In this document: in pieces, positions 1,871 to 51,167 of the stretch
Numbering within the stretch: position 1 is the stretch's first letter
How the letters are laid out: every line of letters begins with the position of its first letter
IMG/VR virus record: IMGVR_UViG_3300048838_000881
Span: 1 to 51,167 of that record
Origin: a virus
Lineage: Duplodnaviria > Caudoviricetes
DNA: 51,167 bases
Strand: one strand, 5' to 3'
Program-made: the position numbers and the translations under genes
The notes under the pieces: generated by a model
Told to the model about the DNA's origin: nothing
Seen by the model: only the letters and a program-made list of their open reading frames with translations
Database searches by the model: none

Positions 1871-2726
1871 TTTTTTTCTATTTTCCTGCGGCTCCTCTAA
1901 TAAGCCCCAGCAAGGCGCCGTGCCCGAGCGCGCTGCCGAGCTAGTGGCCATGTACGAAGAGAAGCTCGCCGAGATTAAAGCCCTGCAGACCCCCGACGGC
2001 TGGGTAGGGACCGCCCACTGCGACGCAGCCCTATGGACGGGGAAGCTCGGCGCGGCGCACGGCGTCGTGATTAATTTTACGGCAGCCGAATATCCTGGCG
2101 CACCGGGTAGATTTAACCGTCGACCCGAGCCGTTCTGCGAAGAAGGGGCCGGCTCAGCGACAAGTTGGTCACGTGATATGGGCATGGGACTCCTGGCGTA
2201 TGCTTGGAAAAAGAGCGATCTTGCGCTCGCGAAACGCCACGCCGATTACGGCAAGAAAAACTATTGGAAGATGGGCGAACCCCTTTCCGACGGGCGCGTG
2301 CTCTATACGCCCGCCGTGATCGGCATGCTTTACCAGGTGATTCACGCGCTCGGCGGCGAAGATAACGTTGCTCGCTCGTGGCCCGGCGTCTATGCGCCAG
2401 GGCTTAAAGATTATGAAGCGCACCTGCAGATGCTCGGCATCTGGCTGCGCGGCGATATTGCTGAAGTCGAGCGCTCGCGCCTCACGCTCGACGTGAGCGA
2501 CGCGATGCTTGATCGCATCAAAGAGCACGCCGCACGCGAGCCGCGCTGCCCGTTCTATCAGTATCTAAACGGCACGTATGCAGGCGACCTCGGCCCCACG
2601 GTCGAGCTTCTTCTAAGCTACGATTATGTATGCGAATATTTTAGAACGGACGAGCACGACGCCGTCGCGTCGGAGTGGATTTTCGCCGCTTCTCTTACGC
2701 TTGAAAGGCTAGGCGCATGGCAATAG
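1836..2726 (+). CDS. Predicted lipoprotein of unknown function, largely alpha-helical
   Basis: N-terminal MQKIIYLWITTSFFLFSC with a lipobox-like LFSC; located in the lysis block. Confidence 0.65.
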   Translation: MQKIIYLWITTSFFLFSCGSSNKPQQGAVPERAAELVAMYEEKLAEIKALQTPDGWVGTAHCDAALWTGKLGAAHGVVINFTAAEYPGAPGRFNRRPEPFCEEGAGSATSWSRDMGMGLLAYAWKKSDLALAKRHADYGKKNYWKMGEPLSDGRVLYTPAVIGMLYQVIHALGGEDNVARSWPGVYAPGLKDYEAHLQMLGIWLRGDIAEVERSRLTLDVSDAMLDRIKEHAAREPRCPFYQYLNGTYAGDLGPTVELLLSYDYVCEYFRTDEHDAVASEWIFAASLTLERLGAWQ

Positions 2727-3103
2727 ATTCCTACAAAGATTTATTCGAGGCGATGACCGCAGCGCTTACGTTTCTCGCCGCGTTCGGCGCCTTGTGGTGG
2801 CGCATTTCAAAAAGCGCCGTTAAAACAAGCCTGGTGATGCGCGACATGGGCACGCAGCTTGAAAAGCTAACGCTTGCAAGCGCCGATCTAACGAAAAGCT
2901 TTATCACGCTCGCAACGAAGCTCGACGAGCGCGAGAAAGATATCGTAAAGCTCGAAGGCTCTATAGATACTCAGCGCAAAGATATGATTCACCTTATTTC
3001 GGCCCTTCAGCAATCAAGCGGCTCGCTAAACGCGCTTTGGCGCACGATGCAAAGCCTTTTTCCGCAAGACGTTCCGAAAAGGGCGAGCGATGAACACCGG
3101 TAG
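2717..3103 (+). CDS. Putative holin/antiholin-like membrane protein (one TM plus coiled coil)
   Basis: TM segment AMTAALTFLAAFGALWW followed by a heptad-like region; immediately upstream of the endolysin. Confidence 0.5.
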   Translation: MAIDSYKDLFEAMTAALTFLAAFGALWWRISKSAVKTSLVMRDMGTQLEKLTLASADLTKSFITLATKLDEREKDIVKLEGSIDTQRKDMIHLISALQQSSGSLNALWRTMQSLFPQDVPKRASDEHR

Positions 3104-3611
3104 CACCAGCGAACCGATACGTATCAATCGAAGCTTGCATCTGCTATTCCCCCCGTTTCGTGAGATCGTCGAGCGCGGGCTTGCTATAGCACACGCCCAG
3201 GGCCTATGGGCCTACGTCTTCGAGGGCTGGCGTTCGACCGAGCGCCAGGCTTATCTTTATGCCCAGGGGCGCACGACGCCCGGCGCGAAGGTCACCTGGG
3301 TTAAGCCGGGGTTTTCACTGCATCAATACGGCCTTGCCGTCGACCTCGTCTTCGACAAGTTTCCCCTTCAAGCGGGCCTGCAATGGACCTGGGAGGGCGG
3401 CTATTCTGACGCAAACGGCGACAATTATGATAAGCTAGCTAGAATCATGAAAGCCGAGGGCCTCGAATGGCTTGGGGATAAAAATATTGAGCGCGCGCAC
3501 TTCCAGCTCACGACCGGACTCACGATTCAAGAAATCAAGACGATTGCCGATGCGAGGGGCACCCTTGGCGCGTGGGACGAAATCGAGCGACGACTTTTCA
3601 AGCGCGCATAA
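3090..3611 (+). CDS. Endolysin, M15 family L-Ala-D-Glu peptidase (CwlK-like)
   Basis: EGWRSTERQAYLYAQGRT, SLHQYGLAVD and ERAHFQL Zn-peptidase motifs. Confidence 0.9.
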   Translation: MNTGSTSEPIRINRSLHLLFPPFREIVERGLAIAHAQGLWAYVFEGWRSTERQAYLYAQGRTTPGAKVTWVKPGFSLHQYGLAVDLVFDKFPLQAGLQWTWEGGYSDANGDNYDKLARIMKAEGLEWLGDKNIERAHFQLTTGLTIQEIKTIADARGTLGAWDEIERRLFKRA

Positions 3612-4020: not shown

Positions 4021-4306
4021 TGAAAAAACAGACAGCGCCCTAACGAAGCTTGGGCTTCTCGCCAAGCTTCTCGGTCTTCTCGAAAGACTGCTTCCCGCCT
4101 TTCTCGTGGCGTGGAATAATGAGCTACGAAATAGAGCAAAGAAAGCTGAGTTTAAAGCTGAAAAACTAGACAGCGATCTAAAAATAACGCGCCATAAACT
4201 TTTGCTCGACTATAGAAATCATGGTATAAAAAATGAAGAAATCATTGATAATTTTCTTAAGCGCAAGTCTCGCTCTACTTCCAACGAGGACGACCCTAGC
4301 CGGTGA
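4004..4306 (+). CDS. Putative i-spanin (Rz)-like protein
   Basis: N-proximal hydrophobic helix followed by a basic coiled coil; position in the lysis cassette. Confidence 0.45.
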   Translation: MSQKLDEKTDSALTKLGLLAKLLGLLERLLPAFLVAWNNELRNRAKKAEFKAEKLDSDLKITRHKLLLDYRNHGIKNEEIIDNFLKRKSRSTSNEDDPSR

Positions 4307-4631
4307 TATTTCACGCGGCGGGCAGGCAAATGAGCCTGGTGCCCCAGGGGGGATGGTTAAGAGCGACGACTTGCGCACGCTTTCGCCCGACGAGTGCTTT
4401 GCGCAAAAGCTCACGTGCGCATGCTATACGCCGCAAGCGACAAGTTATATAGCGCAAGAGCTTCTAGAATGCCAGATTGAGCGCTATAGCCTCGAAGAAT
4501 ACAGCAAGCTTATAGAAATAAAAGCCGCGTCGCCCTGGTACGAAGACCCCAGTTTTATTGTCGGCTCCGTAGTCGTTAGCTTTTCCGTCGGCGCGCTGCT
4601 AGGCTATCTCGTAACCAAGAGAAATCTCTAG
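4233..4631 (+). CDS. Exported Cys-containing protein with C-terminal TM anchor (possible spanin partner)
   Basis: Signal peptide MKKSLIIFLSASLALL, 4 Cys, C-terminal TM FIVGSVVVSFSVGALLGYLV; overlaps the previous gene. Confidence 0.55.
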   Translation: MKKSLIIFLSASLALLPTRTTLAGDISRGGQANEPGAPGGMVKSDDLRTLSPDECFAQKLTCACYTPQATSYIAQELLECQIERYSLEEYSKLIEIKAASPWYEDPSFIVGSVVVSFSVGALLGYLVTKRNL

Positions 4632-12132: not shown

Positions 12133-12340
12133 TAAAGCTTATATCGAGCGAGAACTAATTGCTCTTGGACTCGACCGCACATCAGACGCTTTTCAATACA
12201 TTAAGCTAGAAGCTGAGGCGGCTGCCGAGATTCTTTCTAAACGCGAGGTGCTTGATCTAATAGCTGATCTCGTGCACGGACCGCTTGCGCTGCCTACGAT
12301 GATGTTTCTTGGTGATTCTGATTATGAAAGCGAAGATTAA
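12122..12340 (+). CDS. Hypothetical protein
   Basis: ATG 12122 with SD GGAGG (MANNKAYIE...). Confidence 0.55.
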   Translation: MANNKAYIERELIALGLDRTSDAFQYIKLEAEAAAEILSKREVLDLIADLVHGPLALPTMMFLGDSDYESED

Positions 12341-13250
12341 GCGCATATTCTTCGTGCGGGTTAGCTGCAAGATCTCTCACAAGCATATTTTCTTTTTTAA
12401 AGCGTGAGTAATCTACATAATGATGATGACGATTAAATTTATGCACCATCCGCGCAACATCCGAATGCACGCGCGCAAGCATGAGAGATTTAGCTAGCGT
12501 CCCAGTATCTGCATATTTCGAGCTACCGCGCACCTTCCCCTCTACGTGATAAAACTCATCCGTATTACCGCCCTTGAGCGCTTGCGTACCAAGCTTATTT
12601 TGCAAGAATGCATTGAATTGAATCGTGCACCATTTTGCTTTCAACATATCGAGCGATAGAATCGTATCTTCGTTATAGCGCCCGCGCCAGCGAAACGGTA
12701 CGTCATTGCGTATAAGATTGCATGAATAAATTCGCGTATTCAACGTGAACGGCGGCAGCGCCGCGGCGCCGAAAGCGAACATCGAATAATTAGGCCCGGC
12801 CATCGCCACGTTTCGATAGCGCAACACGAAATCTTCTTGCGCTCTAAAGAATACGGGATTTATAATCTTAATGCGCTCTTTACGCGTCATCCGTCGAAAG
12901 CACGAGATATTATCGTCCATCACCCAGTGCCACGCAGCGCCAAGCTCTGCGATCGAATAATCCCACGCGAAATTACGCGCTGGACCTGGCCCCGTACTCT
13001 TCGTCAATCCGAAATCGTCACACAATTCATATTTTTCTTTATACGATAGATCAAGTTCAAGCACCGTGGCGTCAAGCTGCATCGTCTCGACCGCTCTTTT
13101 ATATGCGATTACCTCTTGCGGTTCGACGACGAGATAATGAGCGACACCCATTTCCGTGAGTGCTTTCGACGTGAGCATATACTGTGCGCGTCCCTTCGTG
13201 GGTATAAATAGCGGGAAGCGCGGATAATTATTCCCAGCGTTTTGCTTCAA
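12294..13250 (-). CDS. GT-A fold glycosyltransferase, TET-associated (TAGT)/GREB1-like
   Basis: FIPTKGR, VVEPQE, GPGPARNFAWD, WVMDDNI, RIYSCNLI, GRYNED and GGNT motifs. Confidence 0.8.
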   Translation of the reverse strand: MKQNAGNNYPRFPLFIPTKGRAQYMLTSKALTEMGVAHYLVVEPQEVIAYKRAVETMQLDATVLELDLSYKEKYELCDDFGLTKSTGPGPARNFAWDYSIAELGAAWHWVMDDNISCFRRMTRKERIKIINPVFFRAQEDFVLRYRNVAMAGPNYSMFAFGAAALPPFTLNTRIYSCNLIRNDVPFRWRGRYNEDTILSLDMLKAKWCTIQFNAFLQNKLGTQALKGGNTDEFYHVEGKVRGSSKYADTGTLAKSLMLARVHSDVARMVHKFNRHHHYVDYSRFKKENMLVRDLAANPHEEYALNLRFHNQNHQETSS

Positions 13251-13862
13251 GATCGCGCCTCTCTTTTTTCGGGTGCCAGATCGACTTCGTTTTTTCCGTG
13301 CAGCTTTGCCCGATCAGCTTAAAGAAATCTTCAACATCTTCCGGGGTATCAAAATTTACGATTATCTTTCGATAGCACGGCGCTGAATCTTCGAAATCCG
13401 GCATCGCGTCGTCCCACTCGCGCTTCGCATCTTCGGCGTTTAGCGCACGCAAAGCGCCGTCGCCCAGAATATTTGGGTCGATCGACATGATTTCGATATT
13501 CGAGAAGCCAAGAAAATCGAGATTAAAATCCATGCCCTTGAGCAAGAACATTTCATTTTTTAGGCTATCGATATCCCACTCGGATTCGGCGAGCTTGTTA
13601 TCCGCGATGCGCGCCGCTTTCACCTGCGCGGGCGTGAGATCCGAGCGCACGATGACCGGCACCTCGCGCATGCCGAGCCGCTCGGCAGCGAGCCGTCGAC
13701 AGTGGCCCTTGATGATAACGCCCTCCGCATCGACGACGATCGGCTGATCGAAGCCAAACTCGGCGATCGCCGAGCAAGCTTTATCACTTGCTCGGCGGGG
13801 TGCTTTTTAATATTATTGAAATAAGGCTTGATCGAGCTAAGCTCGCGCATTTCGCTTTGCAT
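13228..13862 (-). pseudogene. ParB/Srx-like protein with C-terminal domain, split by a 1-nt frameshift near 13770
   Basis: N-part IKPYFNNIKKHPAEQVIKLA (13862 frame) continues as AIAEFGFDQPIVVD..IIKGHCR..RIADNK in the 13228..13671 frame. Confidence 0.8.
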
Positions 13863-28991: not shown

Positions 28992-30395
28992 ATGTCAAAG
29001 ACTGCAAAGACTACGGACGAGATTCTTGATAGCGTAATTCAAGGCAAAGAGAATAAGGGCGCGCTGGCTACGGGCGGCGCTCCAGCCGTTATCGGTCAGC
29101 CGATTTACGAGGGCGACCTTGAGTATGCAAAGATGGCGGGCGCTAAAGATATGGGCGCTTTGCTTGGACAAAAGATCAACGATAAATCCGACGGCGCAGC
29201 GATTCCTTTGAACTTCGGTTCAAAAGCTCAGTGCGGGCACATGCCGCACGACGTGCGCTTGAGACTTTTCAACTTGAAAAAAATGGTGAACAACGTCGAA
29301 TTGCAAGCCGCAATTAAATATCCGCACCAGCATATCACGGCGGATATGATGACCGAAACGCCAGCTTATAAGCACTTTTTAAAGCCTGCTTTGAAAGCGT
29401 ATAACATTACGGACTTCAGCAATTGGATTCCGACCGTTAACACTCGCTTTTATTTTGAAGAATACGAGTTGCCGTTCCTGTTAGCGAACGCTTTTGATCA
29501 AATGCCGATGGATTCCGCGACCGTCGAGGTCCCCGGAGATACTGGGCACCTTGAAGGCGTCGAAGAAACCGACAGCGCTGTGTTTACCGCACAGAGCACC
29601 ACGCAAGCGAACTACGCTGTTACCGCACGTAACAACGTCGTTCATACGCAAATTACTGAAGATTTGCTCAGCGATTCTAGCCCAGCTTATATTGATAAGC
29701 TTCGTCGCGACGTCGTCGCCGGTATCGTGCGCGCTTATGAGCGTTGCATCATAAACGGTGATATCACCGGCTCGCCACGCGGCGCATCGCACCAGGATAG
29801 CGACACGCAAGCCCTGGCGTTAAACGCCACGTTCGCAAAAGCGTTCAACGGCTTGCGCAAAAAAGCATTCGCAAACGATACGGCTCTCGGAGCTGGCACG
29901 ATCGTCTACGATCACAGCAACGACACCGCGTCGAAAGGCATGTTCGCTAAGCTTATGGAGCTTATGGGCAAATTTTCGTCCGAGAAAGATGATCTTATCT
30001 TCTTGGTGCCGTCCATCGTCGAGCATCAAGTCGTTACCGGCGCGATTCCGGAGCTTTTCACTGCGTTTGCATTCGGCGGCCTTGCCTCGAACGTGACCGG
30101 CCAAATGCCTCCGATCTTCGGCGTGCGCGGCATGACAAGCCAGTTCATGCGCGAAGATTTAAACGCAAGCGGCGTTTACGACGGTTCTGTAACCGACCGC
30201 ACAGCGGTTATTTTGTTCAAGAAGTCGCGCTTTTTAAACTTCGTTCGTCAAGCGATTCGCGTATGGGCAGCTCCAAGCTTGCCGTCTAGCGATATCATGC
30301 TTATGACAGCTAAGATGCGCCACGCTTGGAACGGCAACAACCAATCGGCGACCGAGAAATCAATCGTCATGGCGATCAACGTAGCTAAGAGCTAA
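28992..30395 (+). CDS. Major capsid protein (HK97 fold)
   Basis: Follows the protease; ITEDLLSDS, IING and FNGL motifs; followed by a strong terminator. Confidence 0.88.
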   Translation: MSKTAKTTDEILDSVIQGKENKGALATGGAPAVIGQPIYEGDLEYAKMAGAKDMGALLGQKINDKSDGAAIPLNFGSKAQCGHMPHDVRLRLFNLKKMVNNVELQAAIKYPHQHITADMMTETPAYKHFLKPALKAYNITDFSNWIPTVNTRFYFEEYELPFLLANAFDQMPMDSATVEVPGDTGHLEGVEETDSAVFTAQSTTQANYAVTARNNVVHTQITEDLLSDSSPAYIDKLRRDVVAGIVRAYERCIINGDITGSPRGASHQDSDTQALALNATFAKAFNGLRKKAFANDTALGAGTIVYDHSNDTASKGMFAKLMELMGKFSSEKDDLIFLVPSIVEHQVVTGAIPELFTAFAFGGLASNVTGQMPPIFGVRGMTSQFMREDLNASGVYDGSVTDRTAVILFKKSRFLNFVRQAIRVWAAPSLPSSDIMLMTAKMRHAWNGNNQSATEKSIVMAINVAKS

Positions 30396-30420
30396 CCTTT
30401 CGGGTGACTGCATATACATG

Positions 30421-30458
30421 AACCCCTGACCCTAGTAGTGTGGGGTCAGGGGTTTTTT
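30421..30458 (+). terminator. Intrinsic terminator after the capsid gene
   Basis: AACCCCTGACCC...GGGGTCAGGGGTT followed by a T-run. Confidence 0.9.
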
Positions 30459-31487: not shown

Positions 31488-32078
31488 ATGCCTAAGGTAC
31501 TGGACATGCAAGAACTTGTCGCCTTTATTCGCGAAATGCCAAAGGGCATTGATCGCGCGGCGACGCTCGCTCAGCTGGCCGTGATTCAAGACGCCGAGCT
31601 TCGAGCCAAGAAGAACGCGCAAGCAAATTTTATCGGGCGAAACGGGCGGCGCCTCTCCGGCGCGCTCATGAACAGCATATATTCGGGCTTCGAGAAGTCT
31701 TCAAATTCACGTTACCCTGTCGCTTTTATCGGCGTGCGCAATATCCCCTACGGGGCGATTCACGAGTTCGGCGGCACGATTACGCCGAAGAAAGCTAAGA
31801 ATCTTTGGATACCGAAGCAGCCGAACGCCGGGCGCATGACGCCGCGCGAGTTTATGAACCTGCGACGCGCGAATCCGAGCCAGTATTTTCTAAACGATAA
31901 GGTAGCGGGCCGGTGGATAGGCGCCCAAGCAAGATCGCGCCAGCTGATACCGCTTTTCTTTCTAACCAAAAAATCTGTAATCCCCGAGCGCCCGTACCTG
32001 CGGCCCGCGATGGAAGTAGCGGTCGAAGCTTTTGACGGACGCTTCGAGCATTTCCTAAAGGCGGAACTCGATGGCTAG
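31488..32078 (+). CDS. Tail completion/neck protein (HK97 gp10-like)
   Basis: SGALMNSI, YGAIHEFG and IPERPYLRPA. Confidence 0.75.
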   Translation: MPKVLDMQELVAFIREMPKGIDRAATLAQLAVIQDAELRAKKNAQANFIGRNGRRLSGALMNSIYSGFEKSSNSRYPVAFIGVRNIPYGAIHEFGGTITPKKAKNLWIPKQPNAGRMTPREFMNLRRANPSQYFLNDKVAGRWIGAQARSRQLIPLFFLTKKSVIPERPYLRPAMEVAVEAFDGRFEHFLKAELDG

Positions 32079-32541
32079 CGTAAGCGTTCGCGGACAAATC
32101 TTAGAAGCTGTAAAAGCGCGCCTGGAGACGATCACCACGGCGAACGGCTATCTAACGAACGTTCAAAAGATTTATTTTGATAAAATCCCTATGGGCCTTG
32201 ATCTAGCGTCGTACCATTTGCCAGCGATTTTTTTAATCGACGGCCCCGATACGCTCGAATTCGAGCACGCTTGCGTGAAGGGAAACTGGGACCTACGCTT
32301 GCAGCTTTGGCATAACGAGGTGGGCGATATCGAGATGATTCATTTCGTGCGCGACGTGCTCAAGGCGCTTTTTGCCGACAGTGCCGTGGCCGCAAGAAAT
32401 GATAAGTTTAGATCATTACACTCTAGCCTTGTGGAGCTTATCCCTGCTACAATAAGCCCAGACTTGCACATGATAGATGCTAACCGCGTAAGTGAACTCA
32501 CGTTCATTGTGCGCTATCGTACAAAATTATTTGAAATGTAG
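32071..32541 (+). CDS. Tail terminator protein
   Basis: SVRGQILEAVKARL..IT.ANGY; position upstream of the tube gene. Confidence 0.7.
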   Translation: MASVSVRGQILEAVKARLETITTANGYLTNVQKIYFDKIPMGLDLASYHLPAIFLIDGPDTLEFEHACVKGNWDLRLQLWHNEVGDIEMIHFVRDVLKALFADSAVAARNDKFRSLHSSLVELIPATISPDLHMIDANRVSELTFIVRYRTKLFEM

Positions 32542-32553
32542 GAGTTTCTGCCG

Positions 32554-32922
32554 ATGTTTAAGCTCGTATTACTGGTTGCTCTGTTTTTCTCTAGCGCTGG
32601 CTTTTCGCAAACTTTTTTCGACAACACCAAGGTCAATAAAGTAGAGCTTTATCGCACCGTCGTCGGCACGACGTCGGCCGTAGCGATTCCGGCAGCTTCT
32701 ATCGGTGGCAACGTGCTGTCGTGGAAGATTTGCAACGACGCTGTGAACACATCGACCCATCTTTTCGTAGGTAAAGCAACTGATGCAGCGACCGACGGCG
32801 TTATGCTTGGCAAGGGAACGTGCTTAGAATGTTTGAATTGCAAGGGTGCCACGCTGCAAAGCATGCGCGTTAAGGGCCAAGCGGCAAGTAACGGCTATAC
32901 CGTAATTCAGTATAGAAATTAG
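32554..32922 (+). CDS. Secreted small beta-sandwich-like protein (paralog A)
   Basis: Sec signal MFKLVLLVALFFSSAGFS-Q; 4 Cys. Confidence 0.75.
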   Translation: MFKLVLLVALFFSSAGFSQTFFDNTKVNKVELYRTVVGTTSAVAIPAASIGGNVLSWKICNDAVNTSTHLFVGKATDAATDGVMLGKGTCLECLNCKGATLQSMRVKGQAASNGYTVIQYRN

Positions 32923-32993
32923 CGCGTAAGTAACGTTTTCGCTATAAGTTGTACCTAGATTAATCCACAAGTAACGAGAAAGAGGGTTTACCC

Positions 32994-33707
32994 ATGTTCC
33001 GAGCGATACTCCTAGCATTCTTATTGGCTGCGTCCACAGGTTTTGCACAAGACAAAATAGCTAACGTCACTTTATACAGAACGACTGCTGCGCCGACCGT
33101 TGCCGAAATAGCGACGATCGAAACGGTGGCCGACGTCGCTGGGGCGCTTGGCGGGAAATATTTCGATATCTCAACCGCTGGCGATCTTATTTTATACCGC
33201 GTTTGGATTGACGTTGATAACGGCTCGACGGCACCCGCCGCAGCTGGACGCACGCTTATATCCGTTGAAATTGCGGAAGATGCTACCGACGCAGCCGTCG
33301 CCACAGCCATCGTCGCTACGCTTGACCCGCTGCCCGGTTTCGCGGCGGCTGCCGTTGACGAGCTTGTAACCGTAACCTATTCAGCAAAGGGGGCTGCGAC
33401 GAACGTAGCTGCCGGAACGTCTGGCTTTACCGTCGGCGTATCGACAGAAGGCGTATCATCGACGGCAGCTATTGCACCGGCGTCGATAGCTGGCAAGCTT
33501 ATTGGCTGGAAGATATGCAACGACGCTGTGAATACGTCGACACATCTTTACGTTGGCAAAGCGATGGACACCGAAACGGACGGTGTTATGCTTGGCAAAG
33601 ATCAATGCTTCGCGTGCACGCAATGTAAAAGCTCGCATCTTCAAGAAATGAAGGTATCCGCTCAAGACGGAAGCAACGGCTATTCGGTGCTTCAGTTCTC
33701 TAAATAA
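32994..33707 (+). CDS. Secreted beta-sandwich-like protein with ~120-aa insertion (paralog B)
   Basis: Sec signal MFRAILLAFLLAASTGFA-Q; shares WKICNDAVNTSTHL.VGKA.D..TDGVMLGK..C..C..CK with paralog A. Confidence 0.75.
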   Translation: MFRAILLAFLLAASTGFAQDKIANVTLYRTTAAPTVAEIATIETVADVAGALGGKYFDISTAGDLILYRVWIDVDNGSTAPAAAGRTLISVEIAEDATDAAVATAIVATLDPLPGFAAAAVDELVTVTYSAKGAATNVAAGTSGFTVGVSTEGVSSTAAIAPASIAGKLIGWKICNDAVNTSTHLYVGKAMDTETDGVMLGKDQCFACTQCKSSHLQEMKVSAQDGSNGYSVLQFSK

Positions 33708-33742: not shown

Positions 33743-35347
33743 ATGGCTAAGTATAGAAGTAAAACGAATTATGCTCAGATCTATAACGGCGATCGTCAGG
33801 GGTTTAACCTCGGCATCGACGGTGCAATATTTTTGAAGCAAGAGGCAACGCCCAGGACTTTTCAGGCTCCTTCTATCGGAACGCAAGGAAAAAGCGAGGG
33901 CGCCACCTCAGCGTCGACCGATATTTCTGCGGAAGCTTCTCCCGGAACGCTTAACGTGAACGTTCGCGGCGCAGGCGCTGTGACGGCCTCCGTAGCGACG
34001 GCTGGCCTTACGACGGGCGCTTTAATTGCAGCGGCCCTAGAGACGGCGATCAATACGGCGCTTACGGCTGCTGGGCAAGATAATCGCGTCTGGGTTGATT
34101 TCGATAGCGGCGACGATCATTACATAGTTTACGACCAGGCGACAGGTACGGCATCGACCGTTGTGATTACCGACGGCGTGACGAATAACCTTGCCGACGA
34201 CTTGTTGCTCGGCACCGCTAACGGCGGAACGGAGACAGCTGGGACGGACGATACGGATTTTCTTCTTTACACGACCGGAGGCCCGACGTTCAATCAGCCG
34301 ATCGAATCAAACGCACACCGTTCTGGAAGATTCCACAGCGGGATTGTTAAATCCAAGAAAGTTGCTGAGTTCAATTTATCGACCTACATAAATATGAGTG
34401 GCGCGGCTGGTGCTTCGATTGACCCAGCGGTTAGGCTTTTATGGAAAAGCTTGATGGGAACCGAAACCGTTGTTGCGTCGACAGCGATTCGTTATACGCA
34501 GGGGCTTCCTAACTTCACCATGTCTATGGTTCGCGTGTCGACTATATTCGCTGAATATTATACCGGCGCATACGTTCGTGAAATGAACCTGACGTTTCCT
34601 GGCGACGGCCCGGCGACGTGTGAATGGAGCGGAAAAGCGTCGACTCGCTTGATCGCGGGTATCGGGCGCGTTAACGGAGCCGTAGTGGCGAACGCTAACG
34701 TTATCCTAGAGAACGGCGAGACGGACCGCTACGACGTCGGTGCTCCTGTTATGGTTGTCGATACGGATGGACAAACGATTCTTTACGGAGCCGACGGCAG
34801 CTTGACGGTAAGCAGCATTACGGCCCTTTCGCATACGCTCACGCTTAGCGGCGCTGTAAGCGTTGCTGACGAAGGATTTATTGTGCCTTGGCATCCTGGT
34901 GCCGTGCAGCAAACGGGCCGTGATGCGATCTTCACGGACCTTGAAGGCAGCTTCAAGCTTAAAGCTTCGGGCTCCAGCATCTGTGCTACCAATATCTCCG
35001 TGGCCGCTAACAACGACCACTATGATATTGATAACTGCTTCGGCGCAGATCACAACGAGGGCTTCGCGGCGGCGAACCGCATGACGTACACCTTCGGCGT
35101 GACGTTCGATTTATCGAACGAGAATTTCGCTGAAGTTGTGCAAACGACGAAATTCGCGGGGCTCGACCCTGTGATCGTGCTCGGCGCCACGTCGGGGCGG
35201 CATCTAAAGATATCGGCCCCGAACTGGATTCCAGCCGTACCGACGATCGAAGTACCAGAAAACGGACCGACACCAGTAACGCTCGAAGGAAACTTATTTC
35301 AAAGTGCCCCTGGTGCGCAGGATCCGATTTTGATAGAGTTCCTATAA
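33743..35347 (+). CDS. Major tail tube protein with inserted domains
   Basis: Position before the chaperones and tape measure; 534 aa; followed by a terminator. Confidence 0.75.
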   Translation: MAKYRSKTNYAQIYNGDRQGFNLGIDGAIFLKQEATPRTFQAPSIGTQGKSEGATSASTDISAEASPGTLNVNVRGAGAVTASVATAGLTTGALIAAALETAINTALTAAGQDNRVWVDFDSGDDHYIVYDQATGTASTVVITDGVTNNLADDLLLGTANGGTETAGTDDTDFLLYTTGGPTFNQPIESNAHRSGRFHSGIVKSKKVAEFNLSTYINMSGAAGASIDPAVRLLWKSLMGTETVVASTAIRYTQGLPNFTMSMVRVSTIFAEYYTGAYVREMNLTFPGDGPATCEWSGKASTRLIAGIGRVNGAVVANANVILENGETDRYDVGAPVMVVDTDGQTILYGADGSLTVSSITALSHTLTLSGAVSVADEGFIVPWHPGAVQQTGRDAIFTDLEGSFKLKASGSSICATNISVAANNDHYDIDNCFGADHNEGFAAANRMTYTFGVTFDLSNENFAEVVQTTKFAGLDPVIVLGATSGRHLKISAPNWIPAVPTIEVPENGPTPVTLEGNLFQSAPGAQDPILIEFL

Positions 35348-40150: not shown

Positions 40151-41824
40151 GTGGCAGATATTGAACGCGGCTACCTAGAGAACGAGAACCCGGAAGGCTA
40201 CCTAGAGAACGATTATCTAGCGGGCGAGCTTGACGACGCGTCGGGCTTCCAGGTGCAAATGATTATAAATAAAAGCACGCCGCTTGGTTTTCAAGCTGAG
40301 CAGATCGTCAACGCTTCGCAAGCTGACGGTATGCAAGCCGAAATGGTTGTCGACACGAGCACGTCGCTAGGATTTCAGACGAATATGATCGCTGCGGCTA
40401 ACGTGCCGCTCGGCATGCAAGTCGAAATGGTGATCGGCGCGCTCACGTCGCTAGGTTTCCAGGTCGAGCAGGTGATCGAAGATTCAACGTTTGCCGGTAT
40501 GCAGGCATCACAAATCTTTTTAGCCGTCGAGCATGCGACAGGCTTTCAAGTTGAGGGCTTCATAACTGAGCAAGGAACGCTGGGGATTTCAGCGCTGCAT
40601 GATAAACTGCGCCACGCTATCCTAGAATATTATCTCCAATATCCGTACCTTGAAGAACCTTACCTCGTTAGCCTCATGGCCGCGTATCCTGGGCTCCAGG
40701 CTGCTATGACGATCAATAAGAGCGTGGCGACCGGCATGCAGGTCAATCAGATCATCGACCTTGTGCCCGAGGCTGGCATGCAAGCCGAAATGATTGTAAA
40801 TCAAGAGCACGCGACCGGCATGCAAGCTGCTATGACTGTTTTTGCTGAGAGCATGCACGGCTTCCAAGTGCAGCGCGTTATCAATGCGATGAACACCTAC
40901 GGCATGCAAGCCGAAATGATTGTGAATACAGAGCACGCTACAGGTTTCCAAACGCAGCAGCTTCGCGTGTTTAAAAACGGCATGCAAGCCGACATGATTA
41001 TCTATAACGTCACGCAGCTGCGCATTATGTGGGAATTTCCGTCGCGCGGCACCGAAGCGTTGCTCGGCCTTAACTGGGTAGCGTCGACCACGGCGGCCGG
41101 TGATTTTGCAGCAAGCAACGTGAATACGGATATTATCGAGCAGGTATGGCGATCGTCCGGCGTCCCGTCGTTTCAGACGCTTACGTGCGATACGGGCATC
41201 GTCCAGGGCGTGACCATAGATACGATCGCAATCCTGGGGCATAACTTTACGAAATCAGCGACCGTGCAGGTGCAGGGCTCGAACGATAATTTTGCAACGC
41301 CCCCGAACGTAACGTTCAACATGACGACCGAGCTTGAGAACATGTACTATATAAGCCCAGAATTCCCGACGATTGCCGGGCAAAACCGCTACTGGCGTTT
41401 TATCATTCAAGATACGACGAATCCGGCGGGCTACGTCGAGGTCGGAACGATTCTTTTCGGTACGTCTGAAATCTTCAGCGTCACCGAATGCTTCACGAAC
41501 CCAATCACCAGGGGGTATAAGCATTTCAAAGACGCGATGGCGACGGAAGGATTTACGACCGTATCGAACGACCGAGCGTTGAAACGCTTTTTGCGGCTTA
41601 ATTTTGAAAAGCTAAATTATTTTAAAGGAAACTTCAGAATCCTTGACGAGATGATGCGCTTTGCAAGGACAAGTCTGAAAGTTCTCGTTATACCGACGCC
41701 GCAATATCCGTCGCGCTTTGCCGTCTACGGCAAGCTCACGGGCTTGCCCGATATTATCCACGAGGGCATAGATGCGACGACCGAATATGTCGACGTCGAA
41801 TTCGAGTGGGACGAATCTTTATGA
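40151..41824 (+). CDS. Distal-tail/baseplate-position protein with N-terminal ~14-aa G[FM]Q repeats
   Basis: First gene after the TMP; repeat region followed by a beta-rich C-terminal domain. Confidence 0.7.
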   Translation: MADIERGYLENENPEGYLENDYLAGELDDASGFQVQMIINKSTPLGFQAEQIVNASQADGMQAEMVVDTSTSLGFQTNMIAAANVPLGMQVEMVIGALTSLGFQVEQVIEDSTFAGMQASQIFLAVEHATGFQVEGFITEQGTLGISALHDKLRHAILEYYLQYPYLEEPYLVSLMAAYPGLQAAMTINKSVATGMQVNQIIDLVPEAGMQAEMIVNQEHATGMQAAMTVFAESMHGFQVQRVINAMNTYGMQAEMIVNTEHATGFQTQQLRVFKNGMQADMIIYNVTQLRIMWEFPSRGTEALLGLNWVASTTAAGDFAASNVNTDIIEQVWRSSGVPSFQTLTCDTGIVQGVTIDTIAILGHNFTKSATVQVQGSNDNFATPPNVTFNMTTELENMYYISPEFPTIAGQNRYWRFIIQDTTNPAGYVEVGTILFGTSEIFSVTECFTNPITRGYKHFKDAMATEGFTTVSNDRALKRFLRLNFEKLNYFKGNFRILDEMMRFARTSLKVLVIPTPQYPSRFAVYGKLTGLPDIIHEGIDATTEYVDVEFEWDESL

Positions 41825-44346: not shown

Positions 44347-44979
44347 ATGAACGATTTTTATGTGTATGGGCATTTTAAAGGCAATGTATGCATGTATGTA
44401 GGGGCAGGTAGAGAGCATAGGGCATGGGCGTTCAATAAGCGATCTAAGCGCTGGTTTAAAGAATTTGTAAGCCCGCCCGAAGTTCGTATTTTGCTGCAAG
44501 GGTTAAGTCAAGATCAAGCAAGCGAAAAAGAGATTGAAATACTTGCAGAGTACCGTGCTAAAGGACAAGCAACAATAAATTGCACACGCGGCGGAGAAAA
44601 AGGGATAGCGTGGTCACGCGGGAAAAACTTATCTACAGAGCATAAATTAGCGATATCAGGAGCTAAAAAAGGAAAGCCAAATGGTTTAGAAGGGCGCAAG
44701 TGGTCAGAGGCCCATAAACACAAAATATCAGAATCTCGCCGAAATAGCGAGAAAGTTAAATTAGCGGGTGCTAAGATATGGGAAACCAGAAGATTAAACG
44801 GAACAGCGCAAGGGTTTACTACAGCAAAAGCTAGAGCTGTGCGGTGTGTAGATACCGGAGAAATTTTTCGTACTGCAAGAGAAGCGGCAGAAAAAATTTC
44901 AGGTAGCGATAAGCACATACAAGCTTGCTGCGTAGGGCGCAGAGCGACGCATAAGAAATTAAGATGGGAATACGTGTGA
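44347..44979 (+). mobile_element. Free-standing GIY-YIG-like homing endonuclease with NUMOD3/NUMOD1-like DNA-binding motifs
   Basis: FYVYGH...MYVGAG...R; SxEHK.xIS repeated twice; AVRCVDTGEIF...EAA...I..CC. AT-richer than its flanks. Confidence 0.8.
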
Positions 44980-49075: not shown

Positions 49076-49903
49076 ATGTCTATTAATATAAATAAAATTG
49101 CATATGATTCGACGACCCCAGCCGACGGCGCTGCCCTCGCAGCTTTCGTGCGCACGTCCGCCGGAGCGCTGACGTCGACCAATATCGGCGGCAAAGAAGG
49201 GCTTGACGTCAACGTCATAAACGACATAGCGGTCGAGATCGACGGCGTCTATGATGCAGGCGACAACCTGACTCCAGATAATGTGGGCCTCGTCGGCCAC
49301 GTGCGCGACGCGGCGCCCGGCGCCGAAGAACAAACGCTGCGCCTAACGGGCGGAAATCCGAGCGGCGACGACCTTGACCCGGCAAATATTTTCGCCCTCG
49401 ATACGACCTCGTTCCTGCACGCCTGGGACGGCTCGGCGTGGGATAGGGTCGGCCTAACGAGCGGCGCGCTCAACGTTATGCCGCAGGGCAACGTTGCCGA
49501 CGACGCTGCCGACGCCGGAAACCCGATAAAAATGGGCGCGCGCTCCATAGATGCAGCTTTGACTGAGCTATCTGCCGCCGACGATCGCTCGGACCTGATC
49601 GTCGACTCGTATCGCCGCTTGCTTGTGTCCACTGCGCCGAACGTTGAGGGCTCCGTCGCTGCCGTCTCCGTAACGACGACCGCCGCTACGCTTGGAGCCG
49701 CAACGTCGGGCCGCAAGCGCGTCGTGATCGAGAATCGAGGCGCGAAGGCCATCGCCATCGGCTTTGCCGACACCGTGACGTTTGCATCGGGCCTCGTAAT
49801 CGACGCAAAAGCAAGCTGGTCGGAAGAAGTCGGTGAATTCGTGCCGCTATTCGCAATCTCCGAGTCCGGCACGCAAGACGTGCGCTTCATGCAGCTAGCC
49901 TAA
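49076..49903 (+). CDS. Putative virion decoration/spike protein with C-terminal jelly-roll-like domain
   Basis: VSVTTTA...RKRVVIENRG..AIAIGF...SGLVI..ASW pattern. Confidence 0.6.
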   Translation: MSININKIAYDSTTPADGAALAAFVRTSAGALTSTNIGGKEGLDVNVINDIAVEIDGVYDAGDNLTPDNVGLVGHVRDAAPGAEEQTLRLTGGNPSGDDLDPANIFALDTTSFLHAWDGSAWDRVGLTSGALNVMPQGNVADDAADAGNPIKMGARSIDAALTELSAADDRSDLIVDSYRRLLVSTAPNVEGSVAAVSVTTTAATLGAATSGRKRVVIENRGAKAIAIGFADTVTFASGLVIDAKASWSEEVGEFVPLFAISESGTQDVRFMQLA

Positions 49904-50293: not shown

Positions 50294-50611
50294 ATGGGCA
50301 TAACAACAAGCTCTGATCGCTCGGACGTTGTCGAAACGGGCCTAGATCATGCGGTGCTTACCGTGGGTACGACCATTACAGAAGTAAAGGTCGGCGCATC
50401 ACGCAACGCAACCCGACAAATTGTAGTTATCTATAATGAAAGCAACAATCGTACCCTTTGGTGGGGAAAATCAAGCGTGGCTAGTTCAGGTTCTGGGCGC
50501 GGGTTTCCTATTTTACCGGGGCAAAGCGTTTCGCTTCCCGTTGGCGATATCGGTATTTACATCATAGGCGAAGCATCAGGACAAACAGCCTGGGTTGCGG
50601 AGATAGGCTAA
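50294..50611 (+). CDS. Small jelly-roll-like virion protein (putative)
   Basis: TVGTT...RQIVVIYN...LWWG...GFPILPGQSVSL pattern. Confidence 0.6.
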   Translation: MGITTSSDRSDVVETGLDHAVLTVGTTITEVKVGASRNATRQIVVIYNESNNRTLWWGKSSVASSGSGRGFPILPGQSVSLPVGDIGIYIIGEASGQTAWVAEIG

Positions 50612-51167
50612 TGAATCCACTGCAAGGCCCGCTTAGCATCAACAATAACCGGGGCCTATACATAATGGATAGGCTAGCAACCCCAGCTACCTCGCAAGCT
50701 ACTGCCAACACCACAACTACACTCGACGCCGGCTCTTCACGTACCTGGATTTTTACAGGAACAGTAGCCGGGCAGATATTTAGGCTGCCCGATGCAACTA
50801 CGCTTATCGCGAATACATGCTACGAGCTTTGGAATTTTTCAACGCAGACCATAGCGATTCAAGATAACTCGGGCACTCTTCTAGCGACGCTTCGCGCTAA
50901 CGCGCAAACGTTTATCTTTCTTAGAGACAATACTACTAGCGCTGGGATTTGGGCGCTGACCTATACGCTTGATAGTGGTAACATTTTTGGAACGCAGCTT
51001 TATTACACTGAAGACAACACCGAAACTTCGACAAGTTCCACGACAACATTCCTTAACAAACTAAGCTTAACGCCCACAGATCCGTTGTCTTTCGGCAACT
51101 ATCTTGTGCAGTTTCAATTCCTTTGGCGCACTGCTAGTGCAGATAGAAAAATTGACATTAGAATTCG
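50611..51167 (+). CDS. 5' part of the junction-spanning gene (continues at 159..351)
   Basis: ATG 50611 (MNPLQGPLSINNNRG...) is open to the window end. Confidence 0.8.
   Translation, partial: MNPLQGPLSINNNRGLYIMDRLATPATSQATANTTTTLDAGSSRTWIFTGTVAGQIFRLPDATTLIANTCYELWNFSTQTIAIQDNSGTLLATLRANAQTFIFLRDNTTSAGIWALTYTLDSGNIFGTQLYYTEDNTETSTSSTTTFLNKLSLTPTDPLSFGNYLVQFQFLWRTASADRKIDIRI
51010..51167. repeat. Terminal direct repeat / circular overlap (right copy)
   Basis: Matches 1-158 with one mismatch. Confidence 0.97.

Follow-up and report, generated by a model that had tools for sequence, protein, structure and literature searches.

Here we describe, in the 51,167-bp viral record IMGVR_UViG_3300048838_000881 (99% complete and analysed at its full length, hereafter the window), two adjacent paralogous genes of the tail operon whose products very probably leave the cytoplasm and whose shared domain is linked to domains of the virion surface. 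The short paralog (32554..32922, + strand; 122 amino acids, aa) consists of an N-terminal presequence and a single mini-jellyroll with four cysteines (Cys4); the long paralog (32994..33707, + strand; 237 aa) is modelled as a presequence, a first jellyroll strand, an inserted domain of the surface type and the remainder of the jellyroll. Homologs of both proteins keep the features of a signal peptide, nearly always with Gln at the predicted mature N-terminus, and in relatives the same jellyroll carries a copy of a domain from the neighbouring tail tube protein. We tentatively propose that the proteins act outside the cell as soluble copies of tail-surface modules, and we weigh this role below against attachment to the finished virion and against less likely explanations.

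Conserved export signals

The first 18 residues of each protein have the layout of a signal peptide: MFKLVLLVALFFSSAGFS|Q in the short paralog (32554..32607, +; predicted cleavage GFS|Q19) and MFRAILLAFLLAASTGFA|Q in the long one (32994..33047, +; predicted cleavage GFA|Q19). Both begin with M-F-K/R, continue with about 14 uncharged residues and end in G-F-S/A ahead of the Q, and neither contains a cysteine (no lipobox) or a twin arginine. The initial annotation had read them as signal peptides ending in GF[S/A]-Q, and the n-, h- and c-region features held across the full-length homologs, the -3/-1 rule in 43/43 of the short family. In the short-family alignment (A3; 43 sequences, namely the window protein and 42 homologs, 119-134 aa long), all 43 have A, S or G at -1 and A, S, G or V at -3, the n-region has a net charge of +1 or +2 in 42/43, and the +1 column holds Q in 42/43, the exception being gapped there by the aligner; presequence length ranges from 17 to 28 aa and the uncharged run from 11 to 19 aa. 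The long-family alignment (A2; 21 sequences, the window protein and 20 full-length homologs) has Q in the +1 column in 18/21 and a small residue at -1 in 19/21; by eye, 19 of the 21 close the c-region with A/S/G/C-Q, and the other two (P0003 and P0021) have A|D. Across homologs the presequences are 27-30% identical and the mature parts 53-63%. We read the presequences as signal peptides because these features are conserved while the sequence itself drifts. Their conservation, together with that of gene order in relatives, shows that the observation is not due to chance.

When 1.84 billion representative proteins were searched with a short-family profile, 30 matched, all at E <= 1e-10 with none between 1e-10 and 1e-3, and every one of them has one of two architectures, the short form or the long form. 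Twenty-eight of the 30 were previously unseen; 26 of these are full-length proteins, each opening with a hydrophobic presequence, and the remaining two are fragments of 97 and 52 aa. Homologs lacking a signal peptide, which the initial annotation had named as the finding that would speak against export, therefore did not appear among the new full-length members. In the AlphaFold2 model of the long paralog, the presequence corresponds to a helix (residues 3-15) of low predicted local distance difference test score (pLDDT). Judged from sequence, then, both proteins are very probably exported by Sec and processed by signal peptidase I. In P0100, a distant short-type homolog, the presequence ends in L-V-A-C, so this protein may represent a lipoprotein form of the family. 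Elsewhere in the window, a third open reading frame (ORF; 4233-4631, +, 132 aa) has a signal-peptide-like N-terminus (MKKSLIIFLSASLALL...) with no Q after the likely site, and its product gave no family match.

Glutamine at the predicted mature N-terminus and the host

Cleavage before Gln has been termed the "Bacteroidetes Q-rule"; the portion of PMC5837995 available to us gives a frequency of 77% in Ignavibacterium, reports high values for a small number of Chlorobi and for about 5% of cyanobacteria, with low values elsewhere, and describes cyclisation of this Gln to pyroglutamate. As in Q-rule substrates, Gln directly follows the predicted cleavage site in the 42/43 short-family and 18/21 long-family sequences counted above by alignment column. 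Moreover, the residue at +1 is all-or-none per phage: it is Q in every copy of nine phages, including the window, and a complete relative, L013, has three presequence-bearing jellyroll genes (1922-3441) with D, A and D at this position. Such a pattern fits real processing tuned to the host, and the +1 residue may serve as a marker of host lineage.

Shine-Dalgarno (SD)-like motifs precede 39/52 genes of the window, as compared with 13% of random positions. Frequent SD-like motifs are atypical of classical Bacteroidota, and the host may belong to another Q-rule lineage. Searches for a cultured or integrated relative returned nothing: tblastn of the long protein and the tube protein found no match in 50,697 cultured phage records, and a scan of 185,579 species genomes with the short-family profile and a tube profile found no relative and no prophage. 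ARAGORN detected no tRNA in the window.

A Cys4 jellyroll in two architectures

The paralogy proposed in the initial annotation is borne out by BLASTP, in which 50/83 residues (60%) of the C-terminal part are identical at E 3e-36 and the N-termini match more weakly; the DNA-level similarity described there is also still detectable, in the 3' parts of both genes. The matching segment of the long paralog is the C-terminal part of its jellyroll (residues 156-237; 33459..33704, +), with 60% identity to the short protein. Four cysteines had been aligned between the two proteins, and these prove invariant in 43/43 short-family sequences (C60, C90, C93 and C96) and in 21/21 long-family sequences (C175, C205, C208 and C211), in both cases arranged as C-N-D followed at a distance by CxxCxxC. 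They most likely form two disulfides, a Zn site being the alternative.

Over an 85-aa alignment of the jellyroll domain, the short and long proteins of the window are 59% identical, as against 42% between the long proteins of the window and of L024. In a FastTree phylogeny of 16 such domains, same-genome paralogs tend to group, the tree being too noisy for dating the duplication. The short and long jellyrolls of one genome (the window, L024 and L013) are thus often closer than long forms are between genomes, which, as far as sequence comparison goes, hints at gene conversion of adjacent copies.

In the long protein as modelled by AlphaFold2 from a 21-row alignment (mean pLDDT 81.7), strand 24-32 joins the C-terminal sheet and is followed by an insert at about residues 35-155 (33096..33458, +) and then by the C-terminal domain. 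By this model, the short protein is a small cupin-like jellyroll alone, and the long protein adds to this jellyroll an insert of about 120 aa, of the sheath or flagellin outer-domain type, after the first strand. We compared the model with 48,161 chains using VIA-align, and among the 50 top matches listed the insert resembles sheath proteins (cyanophage A-1(L), 8kee_A, Z 9.6, root-mean-square deviation (rmsd) 2.1 over 89 aa; PhiTE, 9cb9_A, Z 8.7; 9khy_a, Z 7.8), podovirus nozzles (8i4m_A, Z 8.9; 6r21_a, Z 7.8), flagellin and FliD (4nx9_A, Z 8.1) and T4 gp11. The Cys4 jellyroll resembles the receptor-binding domain of PM2 P1 (2vve_B, Z 7.5, rmsd 2.5 over 82 aa), the Ena pilin 7a02_A (Z 7.4 but rmsd 8.7) and, modestly, cupins (6b8w_B, Z 6.5; 6e5c, Z 6.4; 3fjs_A, Z 6.2). 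These jellyroll Z values lie in the range that the tool labels a common arrangement, and therefore denote a fold class and not a relative. The invariant columns of the short-family alignment contain no cupin His/Glu metal motif, and no Pfam cupin match was obtained. A Foldseek search with the long-protein model gave nothing below E 1e-3 against the PDB and 15 matches at E <= 1e-3 (best E 3e-12) against BFVD, mostly large uncharacterised phage proteins, together with two named "baseplate J-like".

Family searches were similarly sparse. Pfam, NCBIfam and PHROGs hold no informative family for either paralog, the only match being phrog_16736 (unknown function), which covers long-form residues 35-91; a PDB profile search by sequence gave only E 0.59 and 1.1, and the ESM Atlas places the short protein in unnamed viral clusters only. 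The family is undescribed by these measures, which agrees with its having been put forward as a candidate for an undescribed system.

Capture of virion-surface domains

A link between the paralogs and virion domains had been suggested on the basis of a residue pattern, and two lines now lend such a link independent support. First, the middle domain of the long form occurs outside the exported family: distant sequence homologs (P0022, P0024, P0026 and P0027) have neither the presequence nor the Cys domain, and the domain recurs as repeats inside a 2516-aa ORF of L009 whose N-terminus is baseplate-J-like by eye, a judgement with which the "baseplate J-like" names among the BFVD matches agree. 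Many uncharacterised phage proteins in BFVD also match this middle domain, the best at E 3e-12. Second, in relatives a different insert lies inside the jellyroll. In P0102 (247 aa), the segment 66-188 matches residues 43-168 of the window tube protein with 58% identity (E 8e-36), so that this stretch of the tube gene (33869..34246, +) marks a domain that has been copied into presequence-bearing jellyrolls of relatives. The complete relative G010/L023, which has direct terminal repeats, carries this tube-insert architecture as its only family member, and the insert is 64% identical to residues 47-167 of its own adjacent tube protein (E 7e-44). Counting the long-form insert and the tube-domain insert, which lie at two different insertion points, the scaffold has acquired domains of the virion surface on at least two occasions. 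The long-form insert was also considered as a tube domain and is not recognisable as one (hhalign probability 0.3%). A predicted complex of the tube protein with the mature short protein (score 0.00, mark 0.32) speaks neither for nor against binding.

The initial annotation had further likened the mature paralogs to signal-less proteins encoded at 49076 and 50294, and here the likeness stands at the level of fold class and fails at that of sequence. The 50294..50611 gene (+) encodes a signal-less 105-aa protein whose AlphaFold2 model (pLDDT 72.4) has the strand order of the long protein's jellyroll; VIA-align ranks 2vve_B (Z 8.9) and cupins first for it, and 15 chains are common to the top-50 lists of the two models. 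BLASTP finds no significant similarity between the paralogs and the proteins at 49076 and 50294 (E 0.69 and 11), and hhalign of the short family against the 50294 family gives 67 in-register columns with E 0.0062 and a probability of 6%, because of which we make no claim of homology; the models thus suggest a likeness in fold only, with homology unproven. The 50294 protein is itself related to the C-terminus of the 49076-49903 protein, both matching phrog_30212, with a second match in G001 (E 3.8e-5).

A plastic locus between tail terminator and tail tube genes

A tube protein with 55-67% identity to that of the window is encoded at 13 viral loci; one of these (L018) starts at the tube gene and was left out, so that 12 were judged. 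L015, L016, L017 and L024 correspond to the contigs L004, L005, L006 and L003, respectively, and L016 and L017 apparently carry the same sequences. Between the terminator and tube genes, five loci have a short and a long gene (L012, L015, L016, L017 and L024), one has three genes (L013), three have one short gene (L014, L019 and L021), one has the tube-insert form (L023) and two have none (L020 and L022), which amounts to two loci without a gene, four with one, five with two and one with three. The two loci without a gene are fragments (17% and 30% complete), and no copy occurs elsewhere in their available sequence; in three complete genomes every copy lies at the terminator-tube locus. A copy number of 0-3 marks the genes as accessory and the locus as plastic. 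The long form is 43-49% identical in relatives where the tube protein is 63-67% identical, and the presequence-bearing jellyroll proteins evolve faster than the tube protein. The family appears to be confined to phages and, across an entire clade of uncultured phages of about 50 kb, to lie in the late tail operon.

In the window itself, the placement between tail terminator and tail tube genes given in the initial annotation agrees with what we find on either side. Upstream lies a tail terminator-like gene (32071..32541, +, 156 aa) with a weak match to phrog_5078 (E 2.3e-4), a gene type that also stands 5' of the presequence-bearing jellyroll genes in L003, L004 and L005. Downstream, a 534-aa protein (33743..35347, +) is taken from its position and the ESM Atlas as the tail tube (major tail) protein; it has no sequence match in Pfam, PHROGs or PDB, and we accept the assignment because 24/30 of its nearest named Atlas clusters carry PF18906 (Phage_tube_2), the top three scoring 0.96-0.99. 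Two chaperone-sized ORFs and then a tape-measure-sized ORF of 1262 aa follow the tube gene (+). At the other end of the cluster, the capsid gene (28992-30395, +; Phage_capsid in Pfam) is followed by a head-tail connector gene (+; Phage_connect_1 in Pfam) and then a tail completion or Neck1-type gene (+; PHROGs). Directly 3' of the major capsid gene lies a terminator-like hairpin with a 15-bp stem and a T-run (30420-30455, +), the sole strong site of its kind across 30-36.5 kb.

Nothing in composition or signals sets the two genes apart from this operon, in which they had been described as embedded. Their GC content (0.47-0.57) is like that of the flanks, and both promoter-like sites (7 as against 5.8 in shuffles, by a sigma-70 consensus that may not fit the host) and terminator-like sites (9 as against 8.8) occur at shuffle level.

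Several further features of the window stand apart from the paralogs. Open frames run off both ends of the record (1-351 and 50611-51165, +), and, were the genome circularly permuted, the last could lead on into the first. A gene for a TET-associated glycosyltransferase (PF20691, E 3.4e-37) adjoins an ORF of the ParB-like nuclease/methyltransferase type (12294-13250, -, and 13228-13671, -); the pair, at 12294-13671, suggests hypermodified cytosines in the phage DNA. Among the distal tail genes, a 210-aa ORF (44347-44979, +) contains a NUMOD3 motif (E 3.2e-4) and is probably a homing endonuclease, and the N-terminal half of a 557-aa distal tail protein (40151-41824, +) consists, by eye, of many short repeats ending in G-F-Q or G-M-Q.

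Discussion

Export and the repeated capture of virion-surface domains could be reconciled in more than one way. The role to which we incline, tentatively, is one of masking, in which soluble copies of tail-surface modules block envelope ligands. The genes would be co-transcribed with the tail genes late in infection; Sec would carry both accessory proteins out of the cytoplasm, signal peptidase I would cut before Gln19 and, in a Q-rule host, Gln19 would next cyclise to pyroglutamate. After processing, the short protein would be a single cupin-like jellyroll held by its four cysteines, most likely in two disulfides. Both proteins would accumulate in the periplasm and be released alongside the virions at lysis, where the jellyroll may act as a stable extracellular scaffold presenting soluble copies of virion-surface modules. 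These copies would occupy envelope ligands otherwise bound by the tail surface, and such masking might keep progeny off debris or exclude superinfecting relatives. Exported receptor-blocking phage proteins are known and protection of progeny is an accepted rationale for them, as the available portions of two preprints set out, one of them on T5 Llp (10.64898/2026.03.26.714494) and the other 10.1101/2024.03.05.583538.

Several points weigh against a masking role. A periplasmic protein would meet outer-surface ligands only after lysis, and Pfam, NCBIfam and the PDB profile search revealed no enzyme motif and no known lectin motif. The chemistry is also at issue: we infer cleavage before Gln19, pyroglutamate and disulfides alike, CxxCxxC with a distant Cys could equally suit a metal site, and SD-like motifs in 39/52 genes leave the assignment to a Q-rule host unsettled. 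Furthermore, the known exclusion proteins Llp and Cor are lipoproteins made early or by prophages, whereas the paralogs have no lipobox and belong to a late operon.

The strongest competitor to masking uses the same link to virion domains and explains operon position and domain sharing equally well, although we rate it as unlikely. Here the proteins would fold and oxidise in the periplasm, meet the virions at lysis and bind the tail (or head) as decorations. They would then be virion parts matured outside the cytoplasm, disulfide-bonded and pyroglutamate-capped Cys4 jellyrolls that dock on finished tails at lysis and add exchangeable domains, among them a second copy of the tube domain; we doubt this version to a similar degree. 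The position of the genes directly 5' of the tail tube gene, in a late operon and with no separate signals detected, suits such a role, as do inserts of the virion-surface type that include a copy of the tube's own domain, a copy number of 0-3 as is typical of dispensable decorations, and the recurrence of the jellyroll fold class in signal-less small proteins of the distal tail module. However, binding would be needed in a dilute lysate, the genes are missing from two related loci that have the same tube protein, and we are aware of no tailed phage in which a virion protein is exported and found none in the literature searched. Neither paralog matches a family of known phage decoration proteins (Hoc, Soc and gpD types) in Pfam or PHROGs.

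Alternatively, the proteins could do a periplasmic job without any virion mimicry, such as control or assistance of lysis, protection against superinfection at the entry stage in the manner of T4 Spackle and Imm, or remodelling of the envelope. Export is, after all, the only well-supported property; phages are known to encode periplasmic proteins of about 100 aa that have such roles (T4 Sp and RI), and a scan of 10 small window ORFs with PHROGs found no lysis gene. Set against this are the location in a tail operon and not a lysis cassette, the repeated gain of virion-surface domains, which such a job would not explain, and the absence of similarity to known lysis or exclusion families in Pfam, PHROGs and NCBIfam. 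On balance, this too seems an unlikely account, and we hold it, together with the two that follow, to be less likely than masking or decoration.

That the proteins are never exported is improbable. On this account the N-terminus would be a membrane anchor or assembly element of a cytoplasmic virion protein and the Cys4 site would bind metal (Zn or Fe-S). The structural-operon location and the resemblance of CxxCxxC with a distant Cys to metal-binding motifs could be read this way, and signal-peptide-like N-termini of capsid proteins are regarded, in the available portion of PMC10367356, as processed by a phage protease. Yet the small-x-small c-region followed by Q (42/43 and 18/21), the positive n-region and the drift in sequence form the signature of a signal peptidase I substrate, no full-length homolog was found without the presequence, and the twin-arginine motif that export of a pre-folded cofactor protein would require is missing. 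Least probable of all is that the proteins are cargo of the type IX secretion system (T9SS), with the shared C-terminal ~85 aa as sorting domain and the long-form middle domain as cargo: a signal peptide, a variable middle, a shared C-terminal beta domain and Q-rule presequences that point to Bacteroidota-like hosts would suit it, but PF18962, TIGR04183 and TIGR04131 give no match at E <= 0.1, the model is a jellyroll completed by strand 24-32 and not a separate Ig-like 3+4 sandwich, invariant cysteines are not, to our knowledge, a feature of T9SS C-terminal domains, and the insert of P0102 and of the L023 protein lies within the supposed sorting domain (T9SS C-terminal domains are also not among the 50 VIA-align matches listed, an absence that excludes nothing).

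Counterparts exist among phage-encoded exclusion or receptor-masking proteins, namely T5 Llp, Cor of T1/phi80-like phages and T4 Spackle, which are likewise small, are made with cleavable N-terminal export signals and act in the envelope, Llp being thought, in the available text of the preprint on it, to shield progeny from the receptor on debris. The paralogs differ in their signal peptidase I sites, late tail operon and virion-type domains, have no sequence or family match to these proteins and, unlike the lipoproteins Llp and Cor, have no lipobox. Exported or membrane proteins encoded within tail gene clusters are also familiar as morons, for example Lom and Bor of lambda and gp15 of HK97. 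As with morons, genes for envelope proteins here stand among tail genes and vary in presence between syntenic relatives; unlike morons, they show no deviation in GC and no excess of promoters or terminators of their own, and they have no relative in the 185,579 species genomes. No signs of lysogeny were seen in the window ORFs scanned. The closest precedent in print, to judge from the accessible part of PMC10367356, is a set of five functionally uncharacterised genes carrying Q-rule signal peptides in phages of Porphyromonas gingivalis; those genes sit in temperate "Nixviridae", and the long protein had no tblastn match among the 50,697 phage records. As for the domains, the Cys4 jellyroll shares its fold class, at Z values that the tool labels common, with the PM2 spike P1, cupins and Bacillus Ena pilins, with which the paralogs have no sequence match and, in the case of cupins, no His ligands in common. 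Outer domains of sheath proteins, T7-like nozzles and flagellin or FliD are surface add-ons of filaments; the long-form insert instead sits on a presequence-bearing protein of 237 aa.

Tailed phages are thought to assemble their virions wholly in the cytoplasm, and the exported tailed-phage proteins known to us are either lysis factors or exclusion factors made early or by prophages. Exported accessory proteins are thus a known theme in phages, and what is unusual here is the link to tail-surface domains. If the masking role is correct, the paralogs would represent a new means by which virulent phages safeguard progeny; if the decoration role is correct, they would represent a new assembly route. 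Either way, the family offers a compact and probably very stable scaffold, and its +1 Gln may mark the host lineage of uncultured phages.

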